From contig BCIN01000002.1 in NCBI GenBank assembly GCA_039545335.1, positions 695,118 to 759,117 on the forward strand: a stretch of 64,000 nt of DNA, written 5' to 3'. A program made the position numbers and the translations under genes. This DNA comes from Kondoa subrosea (taxonomy: Eukaryota). The notes under the pieces are model-generated. The model ran no database searches, was not told where the DNA came from, and saw only the letters and a list, made by a program, of their open reading frames with translations. Shown here piece after piece: positions 10,273 to 39,494 of the stretch. Numbering within the stretch: position 1 is the stretch's first letter; every line of letters begins with the position of its first letter.

Positions 10273-11823
10273 CTACCTACCGAGACCTTGATGACCCTCT
10301 GAATGAGACAACGGAGTCAGCTTCCCAAAACCATCTTATTGCTTTGCGACTAACCAAAGTATGGATGCTGCAAAGCCTGCTTTGCGCTCAATCTCTTCGC
10401 AGGGTCATAAATCAGCATTCTCTGTTTGCGCGAGAAAATGCAGAATTAGTTCAAGGCTAATTCACCTTTGCTTCACGAACCTCCAGTAGATCAGCAGACA
10501 CATCATCCAAGCCATTGATGTTGTCTTGTAAGTTCTTTGCACTCCATTGTGGGAAAGTAGCTTTGAAATCCGGAAGTGTAGTTACGCCTGGCCAAACATC
10601 TTCATTCGGTGTGCCGAGAAGTCTATATGGCAAGACTCTATGTATGAGTCGATATTCACACAGTGATACTCTTGTGCATACCTGCAAATTCTGAAGATCT
10701 CATCAATTTCCGAATCGCCAGGGAATCTGGCGACACAAGAAAGTATGAGTAGCTTGCCTTTGCTCATGTGATCGTACACTCACAAAGGCGATCGACTAAG
10801 CATTTCCGAGAAGATGCACCCCACAGACCACATGTCGACCGGTGTGCTATAATGTCTCGAACCAAGCAATACTTCTGGTGCTCTGTACCAAAGCGTGACG
10901 ATTTCGTGGGTGTAGGTTCGAAGAGGAATACCGAAAGCTCGCGCTAGACCAAAATCTGCTAGTTTGAGTTCACCATTTCGATCTATTAGTAAATTTTGAG
11001 GTTTGAGATCTCGATGAAGAATTCGATGAGCGTGAAGATAGTAGACGCCTTTGATTAGTTGGCTGTTGAATAATATATGAGTACGATAGTAAGGAAGACA
11101 TGTATACTAACTATGTGAATTTCTGTACTTGACGGATCAGATGGCTGCAAGATATCTCGTAATGGACAAGCTGACCTTTACAATTTCTGGTCCAAGCCCA
11201 TCACTCTCTGCGCCAACCTTATCCATATAACGTTTCAGATCCATATCCAGGAACTCCATGACAAGGTATAGCTTTGTTTCTTGGTGCACAATATCGAGTA
11301 ATCTGTATGTGTCTCGATCAACATAGAACTCAGAGACTTGTCTCATTATTAGCATACCTGACTATATTAGGATCCTTCATCTCCTTTAACAGACTGATTT
11401 CCCTGACTAGTTACAAGATGAGCGAAATCAAGATGCGCGAAAAAGGAAACCGACTAGCTGTAGACGGTACACCTTCATCTTCTGCTTCGAGTCTGATCTT
11501 CTTCAGCCTGTGCATTCACGATCTGATCTCAGCTGCAGACAGCTAGTCAAGAAAGCTAACACACGCTACTATTTCGCCAGTCTTGTTGTCTCTTGCTTTG
11601 TAGACCACACCATAGGCTGCAGATACTCAGCAACGTCTGATCATTGGTGCAAATACACTCACTGCCTGTATCCAAAACGAGTGCGCCAGTCAAATCGAAT
11701 TGACCTTGAGCCAGCTCTATTGCATACCTTCGCCTACTTTTTCCTGGCAGAGCACGCGTCTAATGAGTCTTTGAAACTGTCCAGCTGCTTGAAGCGACTG
11801 ACTAAACGTGCGTAGGCTTCCAT
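10273..11823 (-). CDS. CDC28: Cyclin-dependent kinase 1 (Cdc2/Cdc28)
   Basis: Spliced [76 protein letters not shown] and [11 protein letters not shown]. Confidence 0.95.
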
Positions 11824-14554: not shown

Positions 14555-15743
14555 ATGGCTCCGAAACTCGCCTGGCTCGGTACATGTGCTCTAATTAGCT
14601 CCTCCCTCTCTATCTCATCGTGGCCGGTACAGGGTTGGGCAATATCGGTAAAGGAATGGTCTCCAATCTGCACAAGAAGGGTCCGGAAGAATGCAAGAGC
14701 ATCATTATTTGGAACAGAACAGCTTCTAAAGCACAAGCATTGAACATTGGCACCGTTGCAAATTCGGTGACCGAAGCTGTCGAGAAGAGCGATATCGTGT
14801 TCACATGTCTAGGAGATGATGCTGCTGTGCTGGAGACGATTACTAAAGCGCTCGAGAAGGACATCAAGGGAAAGCTCTTCGTCGATTGCTCTACCATTCA
14901 TCCATATGCAACTGATAAGCTGGATGAGATGATTACTAAAGCTGGAGGTAGAACCTGTTCTATCGTTAGTTTCTTATTCGCTCACGTCCGTTCTTCTCCG
15001 CCTGCCAGGTTTCTTTGTTGCAATGCCAGTCTTCGGTGCTCCTGCAATGGCCGATTCTGGAAATCTAGTCTGCGTACCATCCGGCCCAGCTGATCAAATT
15101 GACCGAATCTTACCTTACACTGTCGGTGTGATCGCAAAAGCCAACATTCCTTTCAAAGATGCCAAGCCTTCTAAAGCTACTTTACTGAAGATCATAGGCA
15201 ATACTTTTATTCTCCAAATGGTTGAAGCTTTATCTGAAGGTCACGCTTTGGCTGAGAAGTCAGGTTTGGGTGTAGAAGCTTTGCAAATGTTTCTCGAAAA
15301 CCTTTTCCCTGCACCCTACCTCGCTTATAGTAAGCGTATGCAAAGTGGGGATTATTATCAGAGAGATGAGGTCAGTGAAGTGATTCAGATCGACGAGCGG
15401 TAGTGCTTACATGAAGCGAGAAGCCCTTGTTCGCTGTTGATCTAGCTAGAAAGGATGCTGGGCATGCTTTGGATCTAGCGGAAACTCACGGTGTCAAGAT
15501 GCGTAGTGTTGAAGTATGCGATGCACATTTGAAGATGGTCAAGGAGGAAGTCGGCGCAAAAGGTGACATTGTAGGTTTTCGTACATACGCAAAAGCACCT
15601 TACCGATTCGCTAACTTTTAATCAAGGCCGGGATCTACGGTGCTGGTAAATCTTGAAAAGTAATACAGCTTGGTTTTCGCTCATGGTCTTCGTTCTTAGT
15701 CCGCAAGGAAAGTGGGTTGTCGTTCGGCAATCAAGAGTCGTAA
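14555..15743 (+). CDS. NAD(P)-dependent beta-hydroxyacid dehydrogenase (3-hydroxyisobutyrate/6-phosphogluconate dehydrogenase family)
   Basis: Spliced MAPKLAWLGLGNIGKGM Rossmann motif, WNRT, FVDCSTIHP, PVFG, LLKIIGN, EALSEG and FAVDLARKD. Confidence 0.9.
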
Positions 15744-21049: not shown

Positions 21050-23728
21050 CTAGGTAGCAATATAGCACAATTTGTTACATTGATGATTAGAGTCTTTCAT
21101 CTCTTTCTCGCGCTCTATCTACCCTTTGGTAAAACAACAAGTATGCTGAACGATCAGGTACACCAGTGATAGAGCTAGGGAGGCTGAGACGCAGTACTTC
21201 CTGAACTCGATCAACTGCGACTTCCTTCGCTGTTACTTGAGTAATGACCGTGTCATCGAAGTTCAGCCATTGATCTTTCGTTTGCCGGATTGCTGCTGTG
21301 TAATGTCCACCTGTCGCCGACTTGCCATGGTGGTAGACGACTGCGACAGAGCTTTAACAATACATAAACCCCAGCTGAACGAACTTACCAGCTGTGAGTT
21401 GATATTTCACTGCTTTGGGTTGCCTTTTCGAGGCTGCGATAATGGCAGGTGAAATTTCCAGTGTTGTACCATAAGAGACAACTTTATGGTTCTTTATTGT
21501 TCCGCCAGCATTAGTGTAAGAGAAGCGTTTTAGATGAAGGACCAAAACGGGAGGAAGAGTTTCAAGGAAGAGTTGTTTCGTTGCTTCGACTTTGATGCCT
21601 CCGCGTACAATATAGTCAGAGACGGTTTCAGGTTGTGTGAGGTTGGCTAGTGCGTCTTCTATACTTTCCACGTTAGAGGGCTGTCAGACGATAACAATAT
21701 GGTATCAGCTCGAAGCCGAAATCATATGCGCTCATCTCACCTGTACATCTAGACCCAATGTCAAAAACGGTTCCACAATAGCAGAATCTTTCTGTCCAGG
21801 AGCTCTAAGCAAAGACCGCTGTTTCCCGCCGAATATCCTGGTCAAAGCTGAATCCTTGATCTCCGCTGTTCTAGTAGTTGCTGTCCTTCCTTTACTACCC
21901 ACTTCCAACCACTCGTCACCTTCATCTTGATTCACTCCATTGACTTTCTTGACTTCGTTCAATGCAAGCAATTCTTCATGCAGAGTATCAAGGAAGTAAC
22001 CCAAGAACTCTTGCGCATCTTCTTGTTGACCTGATTGCATGACTTCGAATCGTTTATTGGCTTTCAAAGCTTCGTACATGCCATCCGGAACAAAAGGTTC
22101 TGACCAATCTACTGTATCGGCTGATTTATCATTGGATTGAACTTTAAATTCCTGTATAAAGTTGATTCTGTGGGTTCGGTTGTCAATGTATCAGCACAAA
22201 GCTGACAATATACATGCGAACTCACGTTGCATCCATCAATCGAGTCTTCCGCAGATCTTGAGTTGTGTGTTGGCCGACCAAGCGAACGAGATTATAGAAT
22301 GGAGCGCAATAAAGGAGGACTTGCAGTATCTGTGCAAAAAACCCATGTATAAAGCCCACATAGACTGTGATTGTAAGATCTGCGCACCGAATTCTCAAAG
22401 CACATATTGCCCGTATTGATGATCCCTCGCGGAAAGATTGGTGGAGTAGTAGATTGCCATTCCACACCTTGCAGTACATCATCTAACGATGACTTTTCTG
22501 CTGTTGAAGGTACTGAAGATGCATGCGAAGTCCCATTAGTTATGGGTTTGCTGAAACTAGGTTGAGGTGGTAAAGGTTCATTGACATCAGTCGGTAAAGC
22601 AATCGAAACCCTTTTGGTTGAAGGTGAAGCTTGACCACGGAGTAGATCAGCCCAAGATTTAGGTTTCATTGCTGATTTAGGTGGACTTTGGGTTAAAGCT
22701 GAAGGTGGTAAAGAAGTAGGCGGTGAAGTTCGTTTGGAAGATTCTGCAGGCTTATCTTCGACCACCTCCAGAGGTTTTTGTTCTTCTTTTGTAGGTGTAC
22801 TGATTACCAGATCTTGCATATTCGGAGGTGGATCATCGCTGAACCTCAATTTGGGTTTTGTATTCCTTATTGGCGGACTGGAGCTGACAAAATCTCTCAA
22901 AGAAGCATTAGGAGGTGGTCGAAGACCTTTTGCGAAACTCAATGGAGGCTCAGGCTGGAAAGGTTGCGATAAAGAAGCAGAGGTTTTGCGAGTCTTGGAT
23001 GGCATAAGAGTAGCTTCGTTTGATATTGTCAACATACGCGGTTTGAGCGGAGAAGGTCCTTTAGATGCTTGCTCGACAGGTAAGACATTAGGTGTTATTC
23101 GAGGCTGAGGTGACAAAGCTGGTATTTGCGAAGGCACTCCACTTGCTTCAATTTTCGATGATTTAGGCGTTAAATCTTCTGAAGATTCAAGTGTATGTGA
23201 GATGTAAGGCTCTTCTTGAGGCTCAGGACTAGGTGAAGGTAATTTCGAAGTTGAAGGTTGAGGCGAAGCTACTGATTCTCCATTCTTGATGCCTGTTCTG
23301 GTCTTCGATGTCGGCTTTCGCAGCGATATCATATTCGCCGGAGCTTGTACTGTTCACATTGATAAGCAACGGTCTCTGTAAGGCACACTCTCCATAGCTT
23401 ACGGTGTTTCCTCGATTTCTGTTGAATTTGGTTTGAGACAGAGCCCAATTTGAGATGCAGGCAGAACTCACTTCAGCCATTGCGAATCCAATGTCCGTAT
23501 TGAATGAAGTAGGTGATGCGTTTGCAGGTAGAAGCAAGACAGGACTCTTGTGCATCACCTGATCGACTTGCTCCTGAGTAAGAACACCAAAAAGAATAGC
23601 TGTCGGAGGTTGTTGCACTTGACTATGTACAGCAGCGACAGACTAAAGCACGAGCAACAGGCAGGTATCTTAGCCAAATCCAGCGACAAAGATGTTTTTG
23701 CCTGGAAACATACTGACGAAGGCAGCAT
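21050..23728 (-). CDS. UBP3: Ubiquitin C-terminal hydrolase, Ubp3/USP10-like
   Basis: PKSWADLL motif, Cys box GIINTGNMCFENS|ILQ, GQQEDAQEFLGYFLDTLHEE, LPPVLVLHLKRF, His box HHGKSATGGHYT..WLNFDD and AYLLFY. Start and stop approximate. Confidence 0.88.
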
Positions 23729-24140: not shown

Positions 24141-24899
24141 CTACAAAGCCGCGATTGCTTCAATCTCTACCAGAATACCTTCAACAGGCAAATTGCCGAC
24201 TTGGAAAGCAGCTCTAGCTCTGTTGAATGACATCCATTATGAGCTCCAGCTTGGACCTCAACGTGAATTTCGAACTCACGGCTTAGGATTAGGCACCATT
24301 TCAGCATATACAGCGTTCCTACAGAAAGTTTAAGAACATATTGGGTCAGTTCATGCCTTACTCACATAGCAGGTAGATCTGAAATGTCTGTGATGCAATG
24401 TGAGCAAATCTTTGAACTGCATTTTGGTGGTCACGAGCTTACTCTGCAATAGAACAGTCGTCTTCAAGACCCTGGACCAATCCGTGCCTGCTTCTTTGAG
24501 AATGGCTCCGATGTTCTCGAGACATTGAGCTAGACACAACAGGTACGTCATTGTACTGTACTGCTCAGAAGTTTGAACCGAACCTGTCTCGTTGGCAATG
24601 CCTCCAGGTACAATTGTACCGTTCAAGAATGGCACTTGACCGGACACAAAGACCAAGTTACCGAATCTAAAATGGTTATTAAAGTAAGCAAGATCGCCTT
24701 TCTTGAACCTTACTTGGTTCCACCAGCTGAAGGAAAGCTTATCAGCCAAGAGTGTCTCTTGCAACACTGATCAAGACTTACACAAAGTACGACCGACGTT
24801 GCCCAAATGGGTGATATCGTAATTCGCTCTTTTCGCAGGAGCTGGTGACGCAGCCACGAAAGCAGCCAACAAAGTAACGAAGAGTCCTTGGAAGAGCAT
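24141..24899 (-). CDS. Secreted Rid (YjgF/YER057c/UK114) family protein, putative imine/enamine deaminase
   Basis: Seven exons give MLFQGLFVTLLAAFVAASPAPAKR-ANYDITHLGNVAGGTKFGNLVFVSGQVPFLNGTIVPGGIANETAQCLENIGAILKEAGTDWSRVLKTTVLLQNISDLPAMNAVYAEMVPNPKPARAAFQVGNLPVEGILVEIEAIAAL. Rid motifs VSGQ, PAR and VEIEA are present. Confidence 0.9.
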
Positions 24900-25327
24900 G
24901 ATAAGATTTGGATATCGATCGAGGAAGAGATATGGGAGCAAAAGAATTTTGGTAGAAGAAGAAGAAGCGATGTCAAAAGTAGTTTCGATGCGAGGCAACA
25001 ACGAAGTTCACCCTAATTCTGCCTCCCGCATACCAAGCCCGACCTCAAGACTTTCACAGCCCTTTCTTGATGATCTATCCAGTCTTATCAGTAGTGAGCC
25101 GTCGGAGCGCTTACGGTTGATCAATTATGCTTGGTTTCGATCGCATTATAGTACGTGTTTCCCGCCGTTTTCATGTCTCACTTTGAGCTTGGTACTCTTC
25201 CCTCGTAGCCCAAGGCGGCTAGTGCTGATAAGAGATGGGCCACTCTTATCTATAGAAATTACAATGGCGGGCAGCAGAAATCTTCTCTTCTTCCTCTCAT
25301 CTCGAATCCTCTCGACTCATTTGCATC
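24900..25327. promoter_or_regulatory. Bidirectional promoter with GATAAG sites
   Basis: 428 bp between divergent ATGs. CTTATCA at 25084-25090, and GATAAGAG (25227-25234) / CTCTTATC (25243-25250) form an inverted repeat. Confidence 0.6.
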
Positions 25328-28300
25328 ATGCTCTCTGTATCCTTTGTACTTGCGTGTCTCGCAATCGCCCGTGCTTCTCCCGCTCCCTGGACTCCATCAC
25401 TCGAATTCTTAGGGTAATTTTTATGCATTTGTTAGCTGTTGATCTTGTCTGATTATCTTCTAGTCCCTTTGAAGCTCAAAGCAACAGCGCTCACAACATT
25501 CACGTTCAGTACATCACGCCTGAGACACTTTCTGGCAATCTGGTTTTCGCTTATGGCGACTGCGGAATCCCTCATCATTCTTCCGCGCATCATGAAGTTG
25601 GTCGCTTGAACATCGAGCAACATGCAAGTGAAAAACCAACTAGATTTGTTTGGCTGGTCAGTTTTGCGCTGTGTCTCGGATGCTATTCAGCTTATCGATC
25701 AATTAGACACCTGAAGAGATGCCTACTGGAGGATGTCTGCATGCTTTCAGTGATCTTGGCTTGGTCGGACAATCTCAACCCGTAAGTGTTAGCTTGTATT
25801 TGGGTCGAAGATTACTCATATTCTGTTGTCTGGAGATCGACGTCCGTCGACGTCCAGGCGTCAAGCGCAACACTCTTTCGGCCGTTGGTGACTCGCTAGG
25901 AGCATGGTTCGGTCAGTCTTCGTCGTGCTGTCAGTGATGACACTCTGAATGTTCGGCAGACGGAGTTGCATACTTGAAGACCAAAGAGCCCTCGGAAAGC
26001 TTTGTCGCTGGAAAGAAAGATCAGCGGATCGGTATTGTCGGTGCAGGAATGTCCGGTTGTGAGTCTGCTTTGGGAGTTTCGATCGTTGCTGAAATTTTCC
26101 TTAGTAATGTCTGGTCTATTGTTGGACTCGGTCGGCATGTATAACTGGGAGATCAGCGAATCCTCTAGCAGGATCGGAGGGTCCGTCTAGCTGATCATTG
26201 CCTCTGGTTCCTACTGATATGATGCTATAGTCGTCTGCACACTTCTTACCTGAACAATACAAAGCCCGAAGATTATCAATACCAAGAGTAGGTCTTCGCT
26301 TTTGACAATTTGTACTACTATTAACTGTTCTCTCTCGCAGAATGGGACCAATGAGGTTGGGCTTCGAGCAATTTCCTGACTTCTGCGCTGACATGTTCTT
26401 CTAGATTCCCCGTCAATGTTAGCTGGGAAGGCGAAACGCTCGAGATCCAAGATCACAAGATGGTAAAGTATACTTTTACTAATTACGTACACATCTTGAA
26501 TCGGGCAATTAGGTCTTTCAATTGGCCGACGTCCTGAACGAAATGAATGCGGACAAGGATCCAGCCTATCAAGTCAATTTTATTCCGTATGTCTGACGTT
26601 GTTAAGAAGAAAGCTACATCTGAACAACGTCTAGTTGGATCCAGGCGAGTCCTAACAATTATGCCTACACCGAAGGCCTACGCAACCCGGACGGCACCGT
26701 ACCCCGTCGCAGCGAAAGACCTGGTCTCGTGATACCTCAGAAAGAAGCCGCAAAAGAAGACGAAGACTTTGTTGCAGCTGAAGGCAAACTAGAGGAATTT
26801 ATCGGATTTGAGGACAAAGCCGTCCAGTCTGCTACCAATGTCTTCAGTGGGCCCTCTTCCTTCTCTCGCTATCTCTGCTGAACTGACGCAATTGACAGAG
26901 GCCCACAAGCAAGCCATTGAAGACGGTTTGATGGACTGGTCTGAGGCTTTGTACCTGCGTTACAACCAATCGTACGTGCAGAATTTAGCTTTTTGTTCGA
27001 AGCTAATTCGAGGTCACTCCAGTATTCCTATTTCAAAAACATCAGCAGCTTTTGGCACTGGGACTTTATGGGATGAGATATATGATGTAAGTCATTGGCC
27101 ATCATATTTAGATACACATATATTGAGCTTGAACGCAGGGCGTCTACTTCTCTGCTGCAACCTGGAAGACGATCGATAGAGGTCTCAACCGCATCGCAGA
27201 AGCTTTCCATCCTATTGTCGATGAGAGGATTACCTACAATAGACGCATTGAACGTTTGGACTACAATGAAGAAACAAAGAAGACGTCCATCTATTGGAGA
27301 GATAATGCTTATCAAGCCAAACAGCAATCCATTTCGTATGATAAAACCTTGGTTGCAGGTATGACAAGTTTTGAATCCACATCGATGAAGGCTGACAGTC
27401 TGTAGTTCCTTTCTCCGTTGTGAAGCTCTGGAGGTTACCTGAGCTCAGTCCGATTATGACTGAAGCTATTCAATCGCTTGGCTACTCTTATGCTTGCAAG
27501 GTCGCTTTGCTTTACGAGACAAGGTTCTGGGAGGTATGTCAAGAGCTAGTTTCTGGGTCTTTCAATCGACTCGTCTTACATGTTTGCTCCTAGCATATCG
27601 AGAAACCAATCTACGGAGGATGTGGATCGACAGATATCCCAGGAATTGGATCTACTTGTTATCCAGCCTGTGAGTTCACTTCCCAATACAATACAATCAG
27701 GGCTCTCATTGCTCTCTTGAAGACAATTTGAACGGTACCGGCGCCGGAGCGATGTTGGCCTCGTATACAAGTAAGTTAATTAATATATGGGTTTTTGTCA
27801 TGTGCAGTCCTGACGTAATCTGTAGCCGGGACTGGTCCATCTTTACAAGCGTAAGCATTCCTCTTATTGGCCATTGTGACCAATCTTACCTTGCTTTAGT
27901 ATGTCGGAAGAAGATCATGTCGCTCTCGTGGTCAATGCTATGATCGAAATTCATGGACCTATCGCAAAAGAGCAGTACACTGGCATCTATGACAGAGTAG
28001 TAAGTCTCATTTTGGGAATATATCCGGATAGTCTAATGTATTTTGCGCAACTCCTCAGTGCTGGGGTTTGGACGAAAATCAAGCTGGCTCTTGGGCTTCT
28101 CCTTATGTCGGACAACATGAGAGATATATACCAGAGTACCACACTACTCACAAAGGACATACTTTCATCGGCGAACATACTTCGGTTCTTCATGCTTGGA
28201 GTGAGTTATCCCCCGTCCACCTCTTCCGATCTTGTGTATTTGCTCTGATGATGTTTCTTCAATAGTCTTCTCAGCTCTTGAGAGCAGCGTCAGAGGAGTT

Positions 28301-28440
28301 GTCCAGATTTTACTTGATGATGGTTTGGTCGACGAAGCCAAGTTCATCGTTGACAAATGGATGGCTGTAAGTTTTCTGCTCAATATCTTCTCTCCGTATC
28401 GTCTGATGGCCGTCTTCTACAGAGGTGGATCAGTGTCTAG
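25328..28440 (+). CDS. Secreted L-amino-acid oxidase (flavin amine oxidase family) with N-terminal pro-domain
   Basis: Signal peptide MLSVSFVLACLAIARA-SPAP. Pro-domain NIHV..AYGDC..RFVWL|TPEEMPTGGCLHA and a KR site. FAD-binding IGIVGAGMSGL, ESSSRIGG|RLHT, QE|MGPMR|FP, ACKVALLYETRFWE, FIGEHTSVLHAW and C-terminal KWMA|RWISV*. Confidence 0.9.
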
Positions 28441-28613: not shown

Positions 28614-31108
28614 ATGATGTCGAAACCCTCTTTAAAGCGGAGTTCTTCCAAAACAGAGCTATCCACCCCAGGTGCCTTCAAACTACAACGCACGCGTACT
28701 CCAAGCAGTAGCAGCAGTGCCTTTATCTCCAAAGCGAATGAAAGATTGGGAGCTTTATCATTCGAGCAACAACGCAGGAGATTGGAATCCCAGTTGAATA
28801 CTGCAGAAGCTACAATAGCTGAATATGAACAACGTGTGAGATTGGCTGAATCAAAAGTCAGCGAAAGGGAAGCAAGGATAGCAAGGCTGGAAATCGATAG
28901 GTCGAATTTAGCTGAACGAGAATTGGAACGTAAAGAAGACAGACAAGAGGCTGCTTCTGAGGCTTGGACAGCTGAAAAGGTGAGACATTTCACAATCCTT
29001 GCGATTCCATAGCAAGCAACTCATATTACTATTCAGAATCAACTTCTGTCTCAAGTCGATAATCTGCAGTCCGCTCTGAGCGATCTACAAGACTCTCATG
29101 ATGAATTGGAAACCTCTCATCGTTCACTTAGTCACTCCCATTCATTAGCAGAAGAGAAGCTATCACTGTCGCACAGAGCGCAAACGGATCTTCAAGCTGC
29201 ATTGGACGAGAAACAGTCCAGCCTCAATGAAACGCGTAATCGATTATCAGAACTACAATCCTCTTACTCTGCACTTGAAGCCAAACAAGTTTCTTCCACT
29301 TCGTCTTCTTCTTCTTCATCAGAGTATGATTTGATCAAATCTGAGCTCAATAGACAAGTGACCCACTTGAAATCCTTGGAAGCTTCCAACGCTCGCTTGA
29401 CTAGAGAAAACACAGTCTTGAAACAAAGAGATCTAGATTTGGATTTACTGAAAGAAGAAAAGAAGTCTTTGGAAAGTAAAGTTCGAGCTATGACTGGGTT
29501 GAGAAGAGAATTGGCAGAAACGGAGAATGAAGTTCAAAGGTTGTTGAGAGAGAAAGAAGAATGGACAGTTTATCTTCGATCATCAGATCAAGATGATGGT
29601 TCGATAAAAGGCGAAAGTCCTAGAGAGGTCGTCAAGAATCTCGCAAGAGAAAGAATTGCGAAAGTTGGTTTGGAAGAGAGGGTCAAAGAAATGCAAAGCG
29701 GAATGAAGAGAAGGGAAGCAATGATTGAAGAATCCGAAGATCGCATAGAAGAACTTGAGAAAGCTCTGCGCAAACAGAAAGAAGAGAAGAGTATTGTCAA
29801 TGATACCCTCAGGAGATCAAAGAACGAAGTTGGCTTGCTAGAGAAGGAAAGGCATTTCCTGAAAGCTCAATTGGTTCGTGATGCGATAATCATTTCAGCC
29901 TTACAGCTGATTATGTTATGGTATTTATGGACAGAACACTTATACTATCGAAGAATCGCAACTCATGTCAGCAGAAACCTACGATGCTCAGAAATCAGAA
30001 CGGATTCTTCAGCTCGAAGAATTGCTCAGCGTACATCAGTCTGAGCTGTCTGAAGCCAGAAAGGAACAAGATCGGCTCAGAGGCTTACTAGAAGTAGCCG
30101 GCGGCAATACTACTGTCCTGAATCAACCCGAAGAAGACGATACAGCTACAAGTCTCAAACTCAAGCAATCTTCGAGAGATTTGCTCCAAGCGATTGAATC
30201 ACTTCAACAAGGTAAGTCATCCCTTTCTTCTTTAGTAGTACGCTAGGTACTGATGATACACATTGTTGCATAGAACTTTCAGAACTTCAATCTTCCAACG
30301 AGATGCTGTCTCGCGATGTTGAATCTTACGAAACGCAACTCGAACGTCTACAAGACTTGGTAGGCACAGGTGCTTTCAATTCAGATACAACTCGTGTGCT
30401 CTCCTTCAAGGACAACCCAGCTTCTCTCGATCTAGCGATCCGTACCGAAACGCTCGACGGTCTGAAGAAAGAGAACGCTGCCTTGCTCGACCAAGTAGAT
30501 AAGCTCAAGCAATCTCGAGTATTGGAAGAGTCGGAACAAGCTACTGAGAAAGAGAAGACCATTCCCAGAGCAACTTACGATAATGCGGTTCTGGAAAGCC
30601 AGAGATTAACTGAAGAAATTAGCAACTTACAGAAAGCGAAGCTGAGATTGAACGAAGCTTTCAGAATCAAAGCGCAAGAAATGCGCGAAGCTGTCTCTAC
30701 GCTCCTTGGCGTAGGTATATTGTGCAACATTTGTGGATTTATGCTGATGTGAACTCTACAGTATCGTCTAGATCTAAGAGAAGGAGGTCGAATTCGTCTG
30801 ACCTCAATCTTTGCTCAATCCTCTTCTCATCACTTGATGTTTGAGCCTGCTTCAACAGCTGAAGGCGAAGCAAGGAGTAAAGAACTGGTTCTCGTTGGCG
30901 ATGGCGAGGGGATGACAGATGCAGAGAGAAGATCATTTCAGTTCTGGATTGCAGATCGGCATTCTGTGCCGGGCTTCTTGGCTAGCTTGCTGCTCGAAAA
31001 CTATGAGAACGCTACTGTGAGTTTTGCGAGCCCTTTTCCTCTGATCTAAGAGTGCTTACTTGTATTGATCAGCGAGGAGGAAAATTTGCATCCTTTGTTA
31101 AAGGCTAA
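28614..31108 (+). CDS. MAD1: Spindle assembly checkpoint protein Mad1
   Basis: Long coiled coil, Mad2-binding-like TRVLSFKDNPA, and C-terminal MREAVSTLLG|YRLD..IRLTSIF..VPGFLASLLLE. Confidence 0.88.
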
Positions 31109-31113
31109 GCACA

Positions 31114-32155
31114 TCAACCGAAGGCCCGCTCCAGTTGGCTGTATATAGCGAAGATCAAGGCCGAAGATGGAGCACTTCGCAACACCGTCACGCCGCATCC
31201 GCTGTACAATCCTCTCAACCCTCGATGCTTCCAAAGATCTTTTCCAGTAGCCAAGAAACTCTTTGGTGTCTTGCCTAGTTCTTCAGCTGTTTGGATCGTA
31301 CTCTTGATACTGTCCGCGGGGAAGAAGAGAACTGTGTAACCCGTTCCAGCTGCAGCCCCGCCAAGCATGAATTCGCCTGTTGATAAATCTTTCTTTGTGC
31401 TCCCTACACCTCTTCGTGCAACAAAAGCTCGAATAGCCAATTCAAATGAAAGAAACCAAGCCATTCCACCACCTGTTTCTCGCAAAAATGTCCCCGTTTG
31501 ACCTAACCATAATCCTCTTGCACCTTTTTCTTTGATTGTACTTCTTATCAAGGATATTGGTCCAGGAACGGCGCCTGATTGAGGAGAAGAAAGCATTTGA
31601 ACTTGCATTCGACACTTGATGAGTTCGATTGGGGTCAAGACAAAAGAAGTAGCTGCTCCTGCTCCTGCACTGGCTAAAAGAAGATGAGAAAGCGGTTTAG
31701 GTGTCTCTGGCGGGAAAGCGGAAGAGGGAAGGAGATGCTGGATCTGATTGTAAACCACAAACAAGGTTGCATTCTCTGCCATTGCGCCAATCACCGGCAT
31801 GGACAAGCCCTGCACTCTCGTGTCAGCGTTGACTACGGATTGTAGCTTGAACTTGCGCGATATAGACCAAGCAATCCTTCGTTGCGAGCTGTGCGAAGAA
31901 AGCAGTCGACTGGTCCTTTAAATTGAAGCGGTTTATTGTAATCTTGTGATTGCAGGCGTACTTTGACGAGATCCAAGGGGTGCTGCAGCCAAATTGAGCT
32001 AAATCTTTCGACAGCTCGAAATGTCCGTCACCTCATAGATCTTTGCAACCATGCCTGCGAACTGCAGCTACTCCTCAATATCATTCTTTGTCCAGGTTCT
32101 GTGATCAACGCACAGATCCATAGCCTACATCCCTCCAAGCTCTGTCCGAGCCCAT
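31114..32155 (-). CDS. ORT1: Mitochondrial carrier, ornithine/basic amino acid transporter-like
   Basis: Carrier signatures HPLDLVKVRLQ, TPIELIKCRMQ and FPADSIKS. AMAENATLF and GQTGTFLRETGG are typical of the Ort1/Arg11 clade. Confidence 0.8.
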
Positions 32156-34005: not shown

Positions 34006-37000
34006 TTAGAAAGAGAAGTCAGCAATGTCTAACATCGGTTCCTCTTCTACAAGCTCTTCTTCTTCTTCGTCACTTCCAATCAAAGCAGCAGGTGTTTTCG
34101 GTGCAACTCTCTTTGGACCTCCTCCACTCTCCTGACGCTGGTAAGCTTCTGCGAACTCTTGAGGTGTAGCTAAGATGGAGACTAATGGGTAGAACTTCGT
34201 GAGTAGCTCAATTCGGCTTACTAGCTTGTTCGATGCCTTTGTCATCTCGTAACCGCATGAATCGAGGAAAGCGAATGCTAAGACCGCGCTCTCCCGCTAT
34301 CAGTCCTTTTGCAGCTGGATACACGGGCCTGTGAATTCGCTTCAGTACTGTATTGTGTTCAAGCAAGGGAAACGTACGATAATGTGATGTCTTTAAAGAG
34401 GCAGTAAATATGGTCAGCTACTTATTGCCTGCAAACATGGCTGCTTACCAGCTCCTCTGATCTATGCCGTAAGAGACACAATTAATGCATCATTCGGCAA
34501 AGCGATCCATCTGACTTACCTCCCAAACTTCGCTCGGCTTGAAATACCATTGCGGCGTCAAGCCAGTCTGCATCTTCGCAAAAGGAACTCTTCCACAAGT
34601 CTCCGAGTCCTTTGGGTACCTTTCGTTCAGGTCCTTGTAGAACTGATCTGTAAAGCCAGAAATACACTTGCAAACCGCTTGATATTCTTCCGTATCTGGA
34701 TTATAAACACCAAGCAAGATAGGTGACCACCAAGATGCTTTTCTTCCTTGTCCGTGCCAAGCTCCAATTGGTACGAGATCGAGCGAATCACCTCCCGTTT
34801 CAGAATAATCTTTCTTGACTTTCATCCATGCATCGGCTCGTTTATCAGGCGTATATGAAGCAAGCAACAGTTTCTTTCGACTCTTCTTGGTAGGCGAAGC
34901 TTTCTTGCCTTTAGCTGGCGAAGCTGTTTCGGGCATATCGTCTTCACTAAACAAATCATCGGAATTCACTTCTTCTTTAGCTAAAGCTGGAGTGAAACCA
35001 TCTGCTGGGATTTCATGATCAAGTATCTTAATCATCAAGCCTTCACATTTGTTACTGATCGCTTCATCCATCCAAGCTTGAACTTCGGTCAAGTCTTCTG
35101 CAGTTGACAGAATGGAAGCGACATGACCAAACTTGGCCAGAGCTGGGTCTTCAGGTTCATAAGGTGGAAGATGTTTGTGCAGGAGCTCTCTACGAGTACG
35201 AAAGGTTTCGGTGAGCAGTGACTGTTCAATAATTTCAGGACGCAGCTTTGAAGGGCAGGTGAGTAGACTTACTCGCCCATTTAGATGCATCAGGTCAAAG
35301 GCAAAGATTTTTGCTTTGACTTTCACGTCACCGATCTGTACATCCTTGCGCGCTCGATTTGCCAGAGTCTGAAAGTTTTGAAGCGCGCCCGTTTCGGCAT
35401 CGATAGCGACGATCTGCGAGAATGTCAGATTAAGCACAAGAATGATAGAGAGACGAATGTACCTCAGCATCAGCTACGAACGATTCTACACCGCCTTCGG
35501 AAAGCAAGAGAGGAATCAGGCCCAAGATGTCAGGATATTTGTCCGTCATCTGCGGTAAAATAACAGATAAGCCCTTAGCAGACAAAACAGATATATCCAC
35601 TCACATCTTCCAGATGGCGACTGAAAAGCCTCACATACACGGACTGATTTTCACCAATCCATTTCCCGCCTTTGCCCTTCACTTTGACCGAAGTAGCGCT
35701 TTCGACTTCCGGTTTCTCTTCTCTGCCTCTAAGTCGAGCATGGATTTGAACACGTTGGCCATCATACTTCCATTCTGCCGCAAATTCTGCGTTGGGCTGT
35801 AATCGAGATTGTACGTCTTCGAGATTGCGTGTGATCTGACCCAACATGTTTGATAGAGGCGTACCGACTGAAAGAGGAACAGCTTCTTCTAGTCCAGCTA
35901 GACCGACTTTAAGTAGAGCGGGCTGTGAGTACAGGATATGAAAACACATTCAAACGGTGCAATCCCGCATTCACTTACTATGATATCAGAGTAATTAGCT
36001 GTGAGACATTGCATATGAAATATCAGCGAAAGACGGAGAGCCATATTGTCACGCTCACGATGTCTCACATAAACTTTCCTCATCAGCCCTTCAGCTTTTG
36101 CCAATTTCTCCATGACCGCTTTCCTTCTGGGATCATCTTTGCCTTCTTTTACAGTTTTAGCCACAGCTTTGATGCCTTCACATTCAGCAGGAGAAATGCT
36201 CAAGCCTTCAGCATCAGGTCCAGCAAGACAGAAACACCTTGCTAAGGCGTTGGTTACTGTTAAGCGGACTGCGCCAATTCGAAGATGAGCTACGAGCGTT
36301 CGACCAAGGTAGCGGACTTCTTCTCCTTTGGCAGCGACTCTGTTAGATTCATTCTCAAGGCATGAGTGCCAGACTCAGGGAACGAAAATGAACACGAACA
36401 GCATCTTCTGTACTAAAGCTGCTTTCTGATTTGTCACTCCGTTCCCTTTTAATGAGCAAATCTTCAGTAGAGTAGAGTAAACGCCAGAAATACTGAGAGG
36501 AGGAGTTGGTAACAAGGTTCGCTGTCAAAGCTTCAGTTCACTGTCACGGCTCGAAAGGCGAAGAGGAACGAAGACTGACGACTGAGCTTTTTGCATGAAA
36601 GGCAACATCTCCCATATCCCCTAGGCCTGAATCAGTATTTCCGGTGATGCTACGGTTGTTTTGGCTCACCATAGGTATTCCACAACTTCCCCAATTCCTT
36701 CGATGAGCGACCCGAAGAGTCTTTGAGTGCTTTAGAGAGGACTTGACTTCCTAGACCAAGTTCTACACCTTCGTATGCTGGAGCAACATGATTTGTGATG
36801 AGGTATACGGCTGAAAGAAGGACTTCAGGTTGATAAGTCAAGATCGTTCGAAGCGTGTTTGTAAGCACAGTAACGATAATCAATCTTGATCGAGTAGAGG
36901 AGATGAGAACGAAGGCAGCAGTAAGGAAAGAGTAAGGTATTTCTTGACCTGATTTGGGCCAGGAAGAGGAATCGATGTCGATGAGAGGATTGAAAGCGAA

Positions 37001-37474
37001 GATATCTTTGTCCAAAGGGTACACAACAGGTTCACCTTGATTCGTACTTGAATTGTGAGCGAAGCCAATCATGTTCTTCGGTAATGCTGGCTTGACATCA
37101 GGCTTTACATCTACTTGTTCTGCTTTCACTGATGTCTCCTTGCTGATGGAAGGCTTCATATCCTTTTCTTCTGCTTTCACACAACCCTTCTTGCTTTTGG
37201 ACTCGACCTTGATCTTGCTACTTGACGCAGGCAGTTTCGAAGTTGAAGCAACAGGTTTCTCATCGCTGGAGGACAGGTCGATAATCTCAATAGGCTCATT
37301 CACGACGGCCCTTGCTTTGCCTTTATCAACGCTAGACTTCTTTGAGCTCGAAGCTTTGGATGATTTCTTGAGTTTCTTTGGACTCGAAGGAGATTTGAAG
37401 AAAGAGTCCAGGCTGCCTTGCTCCTGCTTTCTCGGCGTCTCTTCATCATCCGACGCTGCTCTCTTCTTGCCCAT
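34006..37474 (-). CDS. ATP-dependent DNA ligase, ligase I family (Adl1-like fungal paralogue)
   Basis: Motif I EWKYDGQRVQIH, CEGLMIK, SYTPDKRADAWMKVKKDY, LDLVPIGAWHGQGRK and SIRFPRFMRLRDDK. N-terminal PIP-like QGSLDSFF. Confidence 0.9.
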
Positions 37475-37838
37475 CCTTTCGCTAGATGGGAAGGTCAAGG
37501 TTTGGTGTAAACAAGTGATAAATCAAATGACGATATGGGGAGACGACTGCTCTTGCTTTCAAAGGCTGGGAAGCAAACGATATCACACCGTGTCGATGCG
37601 AATCAAGCCTTCTTCCGCGAAGAATACATCTAGAATTACATTTCATTGCACACCATTCTGATGCGGCTTCTCTTTCGACAACCCGTTTTGCAAAGCTTGC
37701 TTTTGTCTTTCTGAGTCTGGTTTGCCACATAACAGTGCTTCTTTCTCCCGTGTAGGCGATGTTGCTGACTCTTTTGCTCTGTCCATTGCTCGCTTGACAG
37801 CATCTCTGAAAAATCACAGATCAGCTTTTGTTTCTCCC

Positions 37839-39154
37839 TTATGAGATAAGTTGATCGACATACGCATGTCTTTGCTCGAATTGCGAGTCTTCGATCTTGC
37901 GTCCTAGCTCTTCCAGGATCTCACGACCACCCAAATCAATCAATTTGAAAGCAACATCTTTTCCTAAGCATTCCGCTTCCTCTGAGCTCTCCACATCCCT
38001 CTCTAACATGGTCGTTATACTCCTATCTCCACTCAGAGAAGCAATAACCGCATCCATCTTCAGATGAGCCTTCTTGCCTTGCTCTATGGTAGTCCAAGTT
38101 GACCAAACACCAACAGGAACCGAACAACCTCCTTCTAATACTCTCAACATTTCTCTTTCAGCTAAGACAGTCCAACTTGATTCCCAATCTATAAGTTTGG
38201 AAACCATTTCATGTACTCTGGTATCGTCTGAACGGGTTTCGATAGCTAAAGCTCCTTGACCAACGGCATAGTATAAAGTTGGTGCTGTAAGATGACAGGT
38301 TATTCGATCGGCCATGTTTAAGCGAAGTAGTCCAGCTGTTGCTAGTATGATTGCTGTGAAAGGTCCTTCTGGGTCGTCGAGTTTTCGTAGACGGGTGTTT
38401 CTATCAAAACAATCAATTCATGTCGAAGTATAGAGCTAGCTACACATACAAATTGCCTCGCTAACGAGACATGTCAGCAAGAGTATGTACAGTGATAAAG
38501 ACGATGACTCACAACATCAGCGAATAATAATCTCGGAAAGGCTCTTCTAAGCTGAGCTACTCTCCTCACACTTGAAGTACCGACCACACTGCCATCTGGT
38601 AAATCTTCCAAAGTCTTGTACTCCTTGCCAGCTTTCACAACCAAACAATCTCTAGGATCTTCTCTTTTCAATATCGCACCCAATTCACATCCTTCAGGTA
38701 AAGAAGTTGGTACATCTTTGCAAGAATGCACAATCAAATCAATCGCTCCTTCCATTAAAGCTACTTCTAATTCTTGAGTCCACAAAGCTTTCCCACCAAA
38801 TAAATACAAAGCAGACGTTTGATTCTTGTCGCCTGCTGTAGTCATTGGAGCTATTGAGAATTCTTCTGCGTGTTCAGGGAAAAGAGAAGACAGAGTAGCT
38901 TGAACTAGATATGCTTGAGCGAGTGCTAAAGCTGAAGCTCTGGTACCAATGACTAGAGATTTGGCTGATGCTCGATTAGCTCGAATGAGATCCACTTCAG
39001 GTCGGATGCCTAAAGAAGTAGCTGAGGAAAGCAAAGCAGGTCGATGCGATTCGGTCATGCGTTTGGATTCTATATCTGATATAGAATGGCCGTTGATATG
39101 TAGTTTGGAGGTAGAGGCCGTTACAGCTGCCATGGCCAGAGGTGAAGAAGTCAT
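37839..39154 (-). CDS. HEM3: Porphobilinogen deaminase (hydroxymethylbilane synthase)
   Basis: IGTRASALALAQ, GKALWTQELE, IVHSCKDVPT, REDPRD, GTSSVRR, AVGQGAL and LEGGCSVPVG. Confidence 0.95.
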
Positions 39155-39494
39155 TGCTCGGTGCGGTAATTAGCGAACTCCAGAAAAATTGCTTATGCGG
39201 TGAGAACAGGTGGAAGGCAGGCAGATTTGAGCAGTGAGATGTGATAGATACTTGTGAGAGGCCAGACTTGAGGTTTGCGAAGTCAGCAGCCAATGAAATT
39301 GAGCCCAATTGAGGTGAGATGACGGTTTCGAGAAAGCAGCTCGAAGCTCGAATGTCCATGAATGCTTTCATCTATTCTCATCTAAAGTATTGTTACACCT
39401 ATCATCTCCCTTGCTACTGCCCCTTTCGTCGCCAAATTCCCACCTTGAGCACTTCAAAAGCGATAACAGACGAAAGAGTAGCAGATCAGAAAGG

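Follow-up and report, generated by a model that had tools for sequence, protein, structure and literature searches.

A head-to-head gene pair encoding a RidA-like protein and an L-amino-acid-oxidase-type flavoprotein, both with predicted export signals, in Kondoa subrosea and other fungi

Introduction

A 64,000-nucleotide stretch of the Kondoa subrosea genome (assembly GCA_039545335.1, contig BCIN01000002.1, positions 695,118 to 759,117 of the forward strand; hereafter the window) contains two divergently oriented genes, one coding for a RidA-like protein and the other for an L-amino-acid oxidase (LAAO)-type flavoprotein, and both predicted products begin with a signal-like peptide. The locus raises the question of why an enzyme predicted to generate imino acids and a protein predicted to hydrolyze them should be encoded head to head and both apparently be directed to the secretory pathway. 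A preliminary description proposed a co-regulated, co-secreted pair. This interpretation is supported where computation could test it, and the support is comparative and indirect.

The gene pair

Reading of the sequence together with a listing of open frames (standard code) shows that coding fragments between 23800 and 28800 are short and interrupted by short introns, the pattern of a fungal genome. These resolve into two spliced gene models flanking a shared intergenic region.

24141..24899, minus strand: Rid gene; 7 exons, 146 aa, RidA-like, with an N-terminal signal-like peptide (spliced model, PF01042, homologue alignment)
24899-24782, 24726-24714, 24666-24584, 24529-24443, 24387-24366, 24318-24280 and 24219-24141, minus strand: exons of the Rid gene (model built from coordinates)
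24900..25327, no strand: shared divergent promoter region, 428 bp, with four GATAAG sites (24900, 25084, 25227, 25245)
25328..28440, plus strand: L-amino-acid-oxidase-type flavoprotein gene; 22 exons, 671 aa (spliced model, homologue alignment, PF01593)

The genes are read in opposite directions from start codons separated by 428 bp (24900-25327), the same spacing as given in the preliminary description. Every intron is of the GT..AG type; the six in the Rid gene are 47-60 nt long, two of them with weaker donors, and the 21 in the oxidase gene are 46-65 nt. The Rid model comes from direct inspection of the sequence, with homologues as a check, and its product is 68.6% identical to a Filobasidium relative (P0021) in a full-length alignment. 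The spliced oxidase shares 69% identity across 663 aa with the 680-aa protein P0055 of Filobasidium floriforme. As judged by these alignments both gene models are complete and match their orthologues end to end.

Conservation of the pairing in two fungal phyla

The Rid and oxidase genes have consecutive locus tags in F. floriforme (FFLO_06189 and FFLO_06188), Naganishia cerealis (QFC19_008942/43), N. liquefaciens (NliqN6_5114/15) and N. vaughanmartiniae (QFC22_001246/47), and likewise in seven members of the Fusarium solani complex (F. solani, F. phalaenopsidis, F. lateritium, F. piperis, F. kuroshium, F. euwallaceae and Fusarium sp. AF-6). Adjacency is thus recorded by locus tags in 11 named species (four Filobasidiales and seven of the Fusarium solani complex) that represent two fungal phyla, and the conserved linkage that the preliminary description asked for is present. 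F. falciforme has the two proteins under consecutive accessions. Dioszegia, Papiliotrema and N. friedmannii stand outside the adjacency count, as only their Rid proteins were seen, with 120 of the 430 oxidase matches listed.

An annotation-independent view comes from a metagenome scan with an oxidase alignment, which returned 62 loci in which Rid genes were sought by tblastn with seven signal-bearing Rid proteins. Rid is present in 16 of the 62, and in all 16 it lies upstream of the oxidase on the opposite strand. Where 2.6 kb or more of upstream DNA is present, 13 of 26 loci are Rid-linked (12 of 22 when identical loci are removed), and with at least 1.5 kb the proportion is 16 of 31. Three basidiomycete-like loci have a gap of about 0.75 kb between the genes; in the other thirteen, which are ascomycete-like (L002, L006, L010, L013-L016, L020, L026-L028, L033 and L054), it measures 1.5-2.0 kb. 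A third gene within the longer ascomycete gap was considered and rejected, the stop-to-stop open reading frames of L015 and L027 (longest 119-186 aa, on mixed strands, no Pfam scan) being unconvincing.

The oxidase tree shows the linkage to be phylogenetically structured. All seven members of the basidiomycete clade are Rid-linked, as are 12 of the 13 sequences whose status is known in one ascomycete subclade, and other ascomycete subclades, including those of Aspergillus and Penicillium, are without Rid; in none of 500 shuffles were the labels as clustered as observed. The signal-bearing fungal proteins group together in the Rid tree (Shimodaira-Hasegawa-like approximate likelihood ratio support 87), with a basidiomycete half (99) and an ascomycete half (95). 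Because the two trees have a matching basidiomycete/ascomycete split, the two genes share one history, with losses or Rid-less paralogues. From these comparisons we conclude that the pairing is more than chance.

The distribution is patchy, which could reflect numerous losses or an ancient transfer of both genes together. Of the 120 matches listed (from 430), those nearest to the basidiomycete oxidase outside Filobasidiales, at 48-54% identity, are ascomycetes wherever a name is given, and no further basidiomycete is named among them.

The Rid protein

Family and structure tests for both proteins used unspliced in-frame pieces or exons of the window, or the Filobasidium orthologues, rather than the spliced window proteins. 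Both Pfam families on which a check had been proposed, PF01042 for the Rid protein and PF01593 for the oxidase, are found on window pieces as well as on the orthologues.

24213..24215, minus strand: codon of the arginine at the P-A-R catalytic position, residue 123 (motif 121-123; translation and alignment)

The window frame 24354-24770 (minus strand), which reads through two introns, matches PF01042 with 43.3 bits against a cut-off of 27.3, and Rid orthologues score 94-102 bits (101.6 for the full-length orthologue), placing the family within the Rid/YjgF/YER057c/UK114 superfamily. Compared with solved structures, the orthologue matches archetypal RidA proteins, including PH0854 (3.7e-21), rat PSP, goat UK114 and human p14.5, and its AlphaFold model (mean predicted local distance difference test score, pLDDT, 74) finds RidA structures by fold with template modeling (TM) scores of 0.62-0.75, normalized by target length. 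RidA proteins have a chorismate-mutase-like fold and assemble as homotrimers whose active sites lie between subunits. PKPAR is invariant in the nine Rid family members aligned, and its PAR lines up with that of PH0854 and of rat PSP; the arginine corresponds to Arg105 in S. enterica RidA numbering. Near the C-terminus V-E-I-E occupies residues 138-141, and its glutamates (E149 and E151 in P0021 numbering) are invariant in the nine members, so that both features named in the preliminary description, the PAR arginine and the C-terminal glutamate, are seen in the translation and throughout the family. By sequence, then, the window Rid is RidA-like with its catalytic Arg and Glu kept, yet belongs to a clade of its own.

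Very many of the best 150 Rid relatives (P0193-P0206 and others; 320-460 aa) carry three Rid stretches per chain. They derive from metagenome or assembly sources, and such a chain could by itself make up a 'trimer'; P0195, which is among them, has a signal-like peptide at its start.

The oxidase

26031..26057, plus strand: FAD-binding G-x-G-x-x-G, residues 168-176, aligned with the motif of Trichoderma viride L-lysine alpha-oxidase
26345..26405, plus strand: G-P-M-R, residues 223-226, split by intron 8; its Arg is proposed to hold the substrate carboxylate

Among seven oxidase pieces of the window that were scanned, 27396-27590 (plus strand) matches PF01593 with 22.2 bits against a cut-off of 19.8, 28032-28262 (plus strand) falls slightly below with 19.3 bits, and the other five are not matched; the full-length orthologue scores 148.5 bits over residues 180-656, and its first ~170 residues have no Pfam match. 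The best solved match of the orthologue is T. viride L-lysine alpha-oxidase (7d4c; 7.9e-32), followed by vertebrate LAAOs, L-glutamate oxidase and hcLAAO4 (9enh, E 2.1e-19). The top 24 of 28 PDB matches are L-lysine, L-amino-acid and L-glutamate oxidases, with tryptophan 2-monooxygenase and an LAAO/monooxygenase next, and matches of the amine oxidase type are weak and confined to the bottom of the list (2b9w, 1.4e-4; LSD1, 3.8e-4). By PDB sequence matches the nearest characterized relatives therefore belong with the amino-acid oxidases and not with those acting on monoamines or polyamines, in line with the earlier assignment of this gene to flavin amine oxidases of the LAAO type.

The G-x-G-x-x-G motif is invariant among the 16 oxidases aligned. 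M-G-P-M-R-F is also invariant in 16 homologues, and in the window protein G-P-M-R-F-P (residues 223-228) aligns with G-A-M-R-Y-P of L-lysine oxidase; we take its arginine to bind the substrate carboxylate as it does in snake-venom LAAO. The C-terminal H-A-W-I of L-lysine alpha-oxidase is aligned in the orthologue too.

An AlphaFold model of the orthologue has a mean pLDDT of 52, and is confident only in an N-terminal beta-rich domain (residues 30-130) and parts of the FAD domain. The beta-rich domain (window 25464-25911, residues ~30-125; residues 30-130 of P0055) is conserved, with pLDDT of 73-90, and an ESM Atlas look-up with it gave no usable match. It is likely to be a prodomain of the kind that L-lysine oxidase precursors have.

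Predicted export signals and candidate processing sites

24849..24899, minus strand: Rid signal-like peptide, codons 1-17; uncharged and hydrophobic, proposed cleavage V-A-A / S-P-A-P
25328..25375, plus strand: oxidase signal-like peptide, codons 1-16; ends A-R-A before S-P-A-P
25863..25868, plus strand: K128-R129 dibasic between the N-terminal beta-rich and FAD domains of the oxidase; candidate propeptide cleavage site

Both N-termini lead into A-SPAP. The Rid N-terminus has no charge in residues 1-22, a Kyte-Doolittle maximum of 2.74 and K-R at 23-24, and its proposed cleavage site follows the -3/-1 rule; that of the oxidase has a single Arg (position 15) and a maximum of 2.76. A signal-like hydrophobic N-terminus is kept in 29 of 30 Rid homologues and in 13 of the 14 oxidase homologues shown, the exception being an N-terminally short gene model. 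The hydrophobic N-termini that had been noted in the window are thus family features, and the signals expected of an exported LAAO-RidA module are predicted on both proteins. Neither C-terminus (AIAAL for one protein, RWISV for the other) is a tetrapeptide of the type that confers retention in the endoplasmic reticulum (ER).

Downstream of the signal-like peptides both proteins have conserved basic sites. In each of the 29 Rid homologues that extend over the site, an Arg precedes N-x-D-I-T-x-L-G, where the folded part begins, and it belongs to a K-R or R-R pair in 15 of the 29, as it does in the window Rid. In the oxidase the equivalents of the dibasic are a nearly invariant K134 and an invariant R135 (16 sequences), within a low-confidence linker (131-167) of the orthologue model. 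These basic sites may be propeptide sites used in the secretory pathway. An N-G-T/S sequon is also kept in nine of nine Rid family members, with the Asn invariant.

The shared intergenic region

GATAAG, the core site of the fungal nitrogen GATA factors AreA/NIT2/Gat1, occurs 38 times in the 64-kb window. Four of these are within the 428-bp region, where 0.23 would be expected (Poisson 9.5e-5), and no other 428-bp stretch of the window has at least four. Across 16 related loci the density is 2.0/kb in Rid-oxidase intergenic DNA (24.4 kb) versus 0.34/kb in the remainder of those loci, about sixfold, and GATAAG ranks first among 60 permutations of its letters (51 versus a mean of 12.1, sd 7.4; window plus 15 distinct loci). 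This enrichment in the shared intergenic DNA is suggestive of nitrogen control, and hints that the Rid and oxidase genes are jointly under it.

In the ascomycete-like loci the shared control region is long, GATA-rich and of conserved size (1.5-2.0 kb).

A proposed function and its alternatives

Starting from what is seen at these loci (the genes, their domains and motifs, their linkage and orientation, and the GATA-site enrichment), expression, localization and the two activities can be sketched as follows. A GATA-type nitrogen regulator would activate the shared 428-bp promoter when good nitrogen is scarce, and cleavable signal peptides would route both products into the secretory pathway. 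Both proteins would probably be trimmed at the basic site, which in the oxidase would remove the N-terminal beta-rich prodomain. The FAD oxidase would then act beyond the plasma membrane, either in the medium or in the cell wall, and would, as expected from its family, use O2 to turn L-amino acids into 2-imino acids with release of H2O2; the RidA-type protein, from its family and its kept Arg, would speed imino-acid hydrolysis to 2-keto acids and ammonium, and the ammonium would be taken up by the cell. We regard it as moderately probable that the pair is such a nitrogen-regulated secreted two-enzyme module, in which external amino acids are deaminated to keto acid, ammonium and H2O2.

A number of points weigh against this function. 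Imino acids also hydrolyze spontaneously, so the benefit of an extracellular Rid protein is not self-evident. Four members of the signal-bearing Rid family (P0021, 95.5; P0015, 87.9; P0207, 95.4; P0209, 100.5 bits) miss the curated NCBIfam cut-off of 106.25 for TIGR00004 (RidA), leaving profile positions 1-15 unmatched, even though TIGR00004 is by far their best NCBIfam match. The RidA N-terminal motif G-P-Y-S-Q-A, whose tyrosine is of functional weight, is replaced by L-S-G-G or L-S-S-G in the signal-bearing family, and x-G-P-Y-S-Q-A is present in most other rows of the Rid tree. The missed cut-off and the altered motif together mean that the substrate range may differ from that of RidA. For the oxidase, whose substrates are predicted to be L-amino acids, the best solved relative is lysine-specific. 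A search of sequencing runs found this DNA in two DNA rows of one study and in no RNA run. The evidence for co-regulation consists of promoter motifs, and entry into the secretory pathway, itself predicted, is not the same as release into the medium.

Linkage and neighborhood also supply contrary observations. No Rid gene is found within 5 kb in 13 of the 26 metagenome oxidase loci with enough upstream DNA, and in many fungi the oxidase evidently works without a linked Rid. F. solani-melongenae has non-consecutive tags (Rid, LCI18_013660; a 670-aa member of the oxidase cluster, LCI18_013347). These tags may reflect a paralogue or a rearrangement. Among 80 open frames between 8 and 44 kb of the window there is no nitrogen-transport or catalase gene near the pair.

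A more demanding version of the module, which we hold only tentatively, is that the two genes form an old secreted cassette, either co-inherited since before the ascomycete/basidiomycete split or transferred as a unit, in which the Rid protein is a necessary partner. It might dock on the oxidase, like the M-beta subunit of Chlamydomonas, or it might set the rate of ammonium release and shield the enzyme and the wall from imines. A binding prediction with the Filobasidium oxidase (24-680) and Rid (36-156) gave a score of 0.00 in two runs in which the controls were not folded, and so speaks neither for nor against docking. If the pair is such a cassette, it would include the first secreted RidA clade in fungi and would provide a natural setting in which to gauge what RidA action on LAAO-made imines is worth physiologically outside the cell.

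It is also conceivable, if unlikely, that the oxidase is secreted mainly for the H2O2 that it produces, against competitors or hosts, with the Rid protein sustaining turnover or guarding the producer's wall and enzymes from imines. The chemistry would be identical and all structural and linkage results fit equally, and LAAOs of other organisms have been described as defense enzymes (PMC6149928). The GATAAG enrichment over 16 loci points instead to nitrogen control, though a GATA factor could serve other programs, and no catalase, peroxidase or self-protection gene is linked to the pair among the 80 frames.

More improbable is that the two proteins act within an internal compartment (vacuole, ER or Golgi) or bound to the wall, processing amino acids or amines there. 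The N-terminal signal is the only sorting feature seen, which would suit such a location, but the C-termini are not of the ER-retention type and related fungal LAAOs with ER signals were chosen for study as naturally secreted enzymes (PMC8364938).

We give slightly less credence still to a specific keto-acid product as the purpose of the pair, such as indole-3-pyruvate as an auxin intermediate, a role put forward for Chlamydomonas LAO1/LAO2 and for the Gluconacetobacter lao cluster. The pair occurs in relatives that live as yeasts on plant surfaces and in soil, and in plant-associated Fusarium, an ecology that would suit this product. Both published LAAO-RidA clusters are linked to the formation of indole-3-acetic acid (IAA) from tryptophan (PMC10805672, PMC5053998). 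The secreted LAAOs of Neurospora crassa and Colletotrichum gloeosporioides have broad spectra, however (PMC8364938), and the Chlamydomonas enzyme also scavenges nitrogen, which makes the keto acid a side product more than a rival function.

Least probable is that a promoter shared by an accident of genome history joins an oxidase to a Rid protein with another substrate: the sub-cut-off TIGR00004 score, the altered N-terminal motif and the half of oxidase loci that lack Rid would allow it, but it is hard to hold because the divergent arrangement is conserved in two phyla despite ~50% protein divergence, being seen in 16 metagenome loci and, by locus tags, in 11 named species, with a matching split in both protein trees, and chance neighbors would not persist in this way.

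Relationship to known systems

The module proposed here has two described counterparts. In the green alga Chlamydomonas reinhardtii LAO1 and LAO2, the latter a putative RidA, are encoded in one gene cluster and are drawn as acting in the periplasm; like the fungal pair, they combine clustered LAAO and RidA genes, and the algal pair is extracellular, acts on external amino acids under nitrogen limitation and yields keto acid and ammonium (PMC10805672). The algal LAAO/RidA is described as an M-alpha/M-beta complex (PMC5053998). A physical complex is thus a reported feature of the alga, and a head-to-head layout and a GATA-rich promoter are described for the fungal pair; the likeness between the two systems is one of description. 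In Gluconacetobacter diazotrophicus PAL5 the lao-cccA-ridA genes (GDI2456-2454) include an LAAO predicted to be periplasmic, and the lao-ridA pairing is reported to recur in a further 19 genomes of bacteria (PMC5053998). Here too the genes of an LAAO-type flavoenzyme and a RidA are neighbors, but in a one-direction, IAA-linked operon with a cytochrome c gene between them, and no cytochrome gene lies between or beside the fungal genes (window frames from 8 to 44 kb, and the gaps of L015 and L027).

An exported LAAO-RidA module is therefore already proposed for a green alga and bacteria, and what is new is its proposal for fungi. For this kind of system the Chlamydomonas (PMC10805672) and bacterial lao-cccA-ridA (PMC5053998) clusters are precedents. 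The preliminary description knew of no account of the pairing in fungi, and its statement that characterized eukaryotic RidA proteins are cytosolic or organellar overlooks the putative periplasmic LAO2/RidA that is clustered with LAO1 in Chlamydomonas (PMC10805672). Neither a fungal LAAO-Rid pair nor a secreted fungal RidA was found in the literature searched, which had most subscription journals and supplements outside its scope, and the sole fungal secretome match for PF01042 there concerned proteins without a signal peptide.

Several fungal FAD LAAOs with ER signals are known, namely ncLAAO1 (N. crassa), cgLAAO1 (C. gloeosporioides) and hcLAAO4 (Hebeloma cylindrosporum), and these are N-glycosylated when secreted from Pichia (PMC8364938). 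Unlike the window oxidase, they have no Rid partner mentioned in the available portion of that report (PMC8364938). Relatives of the window oxidase carry similar annotations, e.g. 'L-amino-acid oxidase precursor'. Such annotation names give a lead that the N. crassa enzyme may be the nearest of these to the window oxidase. The N. crassa LAAO may be under nit-2 control, a subject on which a literature search found nothing.

The closest solved relative, 7d4c, shares the aligned G-x-G-x-x-G, G-x-M-R-x-P and H-A-W-I motifs with the window family, and is itself a precursor with an N-terminal propeptide and a 617-aa chain. It differs in that only residues 170-235 and 401-674 align and in that the window family has ~80 extra N-terminal, beta-rich residues. 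The Rid protein resembles archetypal RidA (PH0854, rat PSP, goat UK114, human p14.5, S. enterica RidA) in its predicted fold, PF01042 match, Arg and C-terminal Glu, and the window family departs from these proteins in its signal-like peptide, candidate basic processing site, N-glycosylation sequons and L-S-G-G in place of G-P-Y-S-Q-A.

Measurements of the imine-deaminase activity of RidA are usually made in vitro, a foreign L-amino-acid oxidase supplying the imine. Given the pairing, the apparent export of both proteins and their retention in two phyla, these fungi offer a simple system for asking whether faster imine hydrolysis matters in vivo. RidA proteins do speed the hydrolysis of enzyme-made imines in vitro (PMC5619798). 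For fungal ecology the Rid protein would be a second component of LAAO-based nitrogen mineralization by soil and leaf-surface yeasts and Fusarium, and in enzyme use its co-expression might raise keto-acid production by fungal LAAOs.

Genomic neighborhood and origin

The families recognized among the 80 open frames are only of the housekeeping type, and include a protein kinase, an NAD-binding dehydrogenase, a ubiquitin hydrolase (UCH), a MAD-type checkpoint protein, a mitochondrial carrier, an ATP-dependent DNA ligase and a porphobilinogen deaminase. The neighboring genes with these families have the following coordinates in the window.

10783-11106
14599-15090
21357-22190
29013-31046
31117-31917
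34493-37522
37842-39169

Recent horizontal transfer of the pair was considered and rejected, as the GC content is even (0.43-0.47 over 14-40 kb) and the genes have 21 and 6 short introns of the host type; an old transfer of the pair into the lineage is possible. An ascomycete relative of the oxidase (L015, 4959-7034) is a single uninterrupted frame of 691 codons, in contrast to the 21 introns at 25328-28440 of the window, and this difference in intron load between oxidase orthologues fits long residence in each lineage. The window has single N bases at 2703 and 3005.

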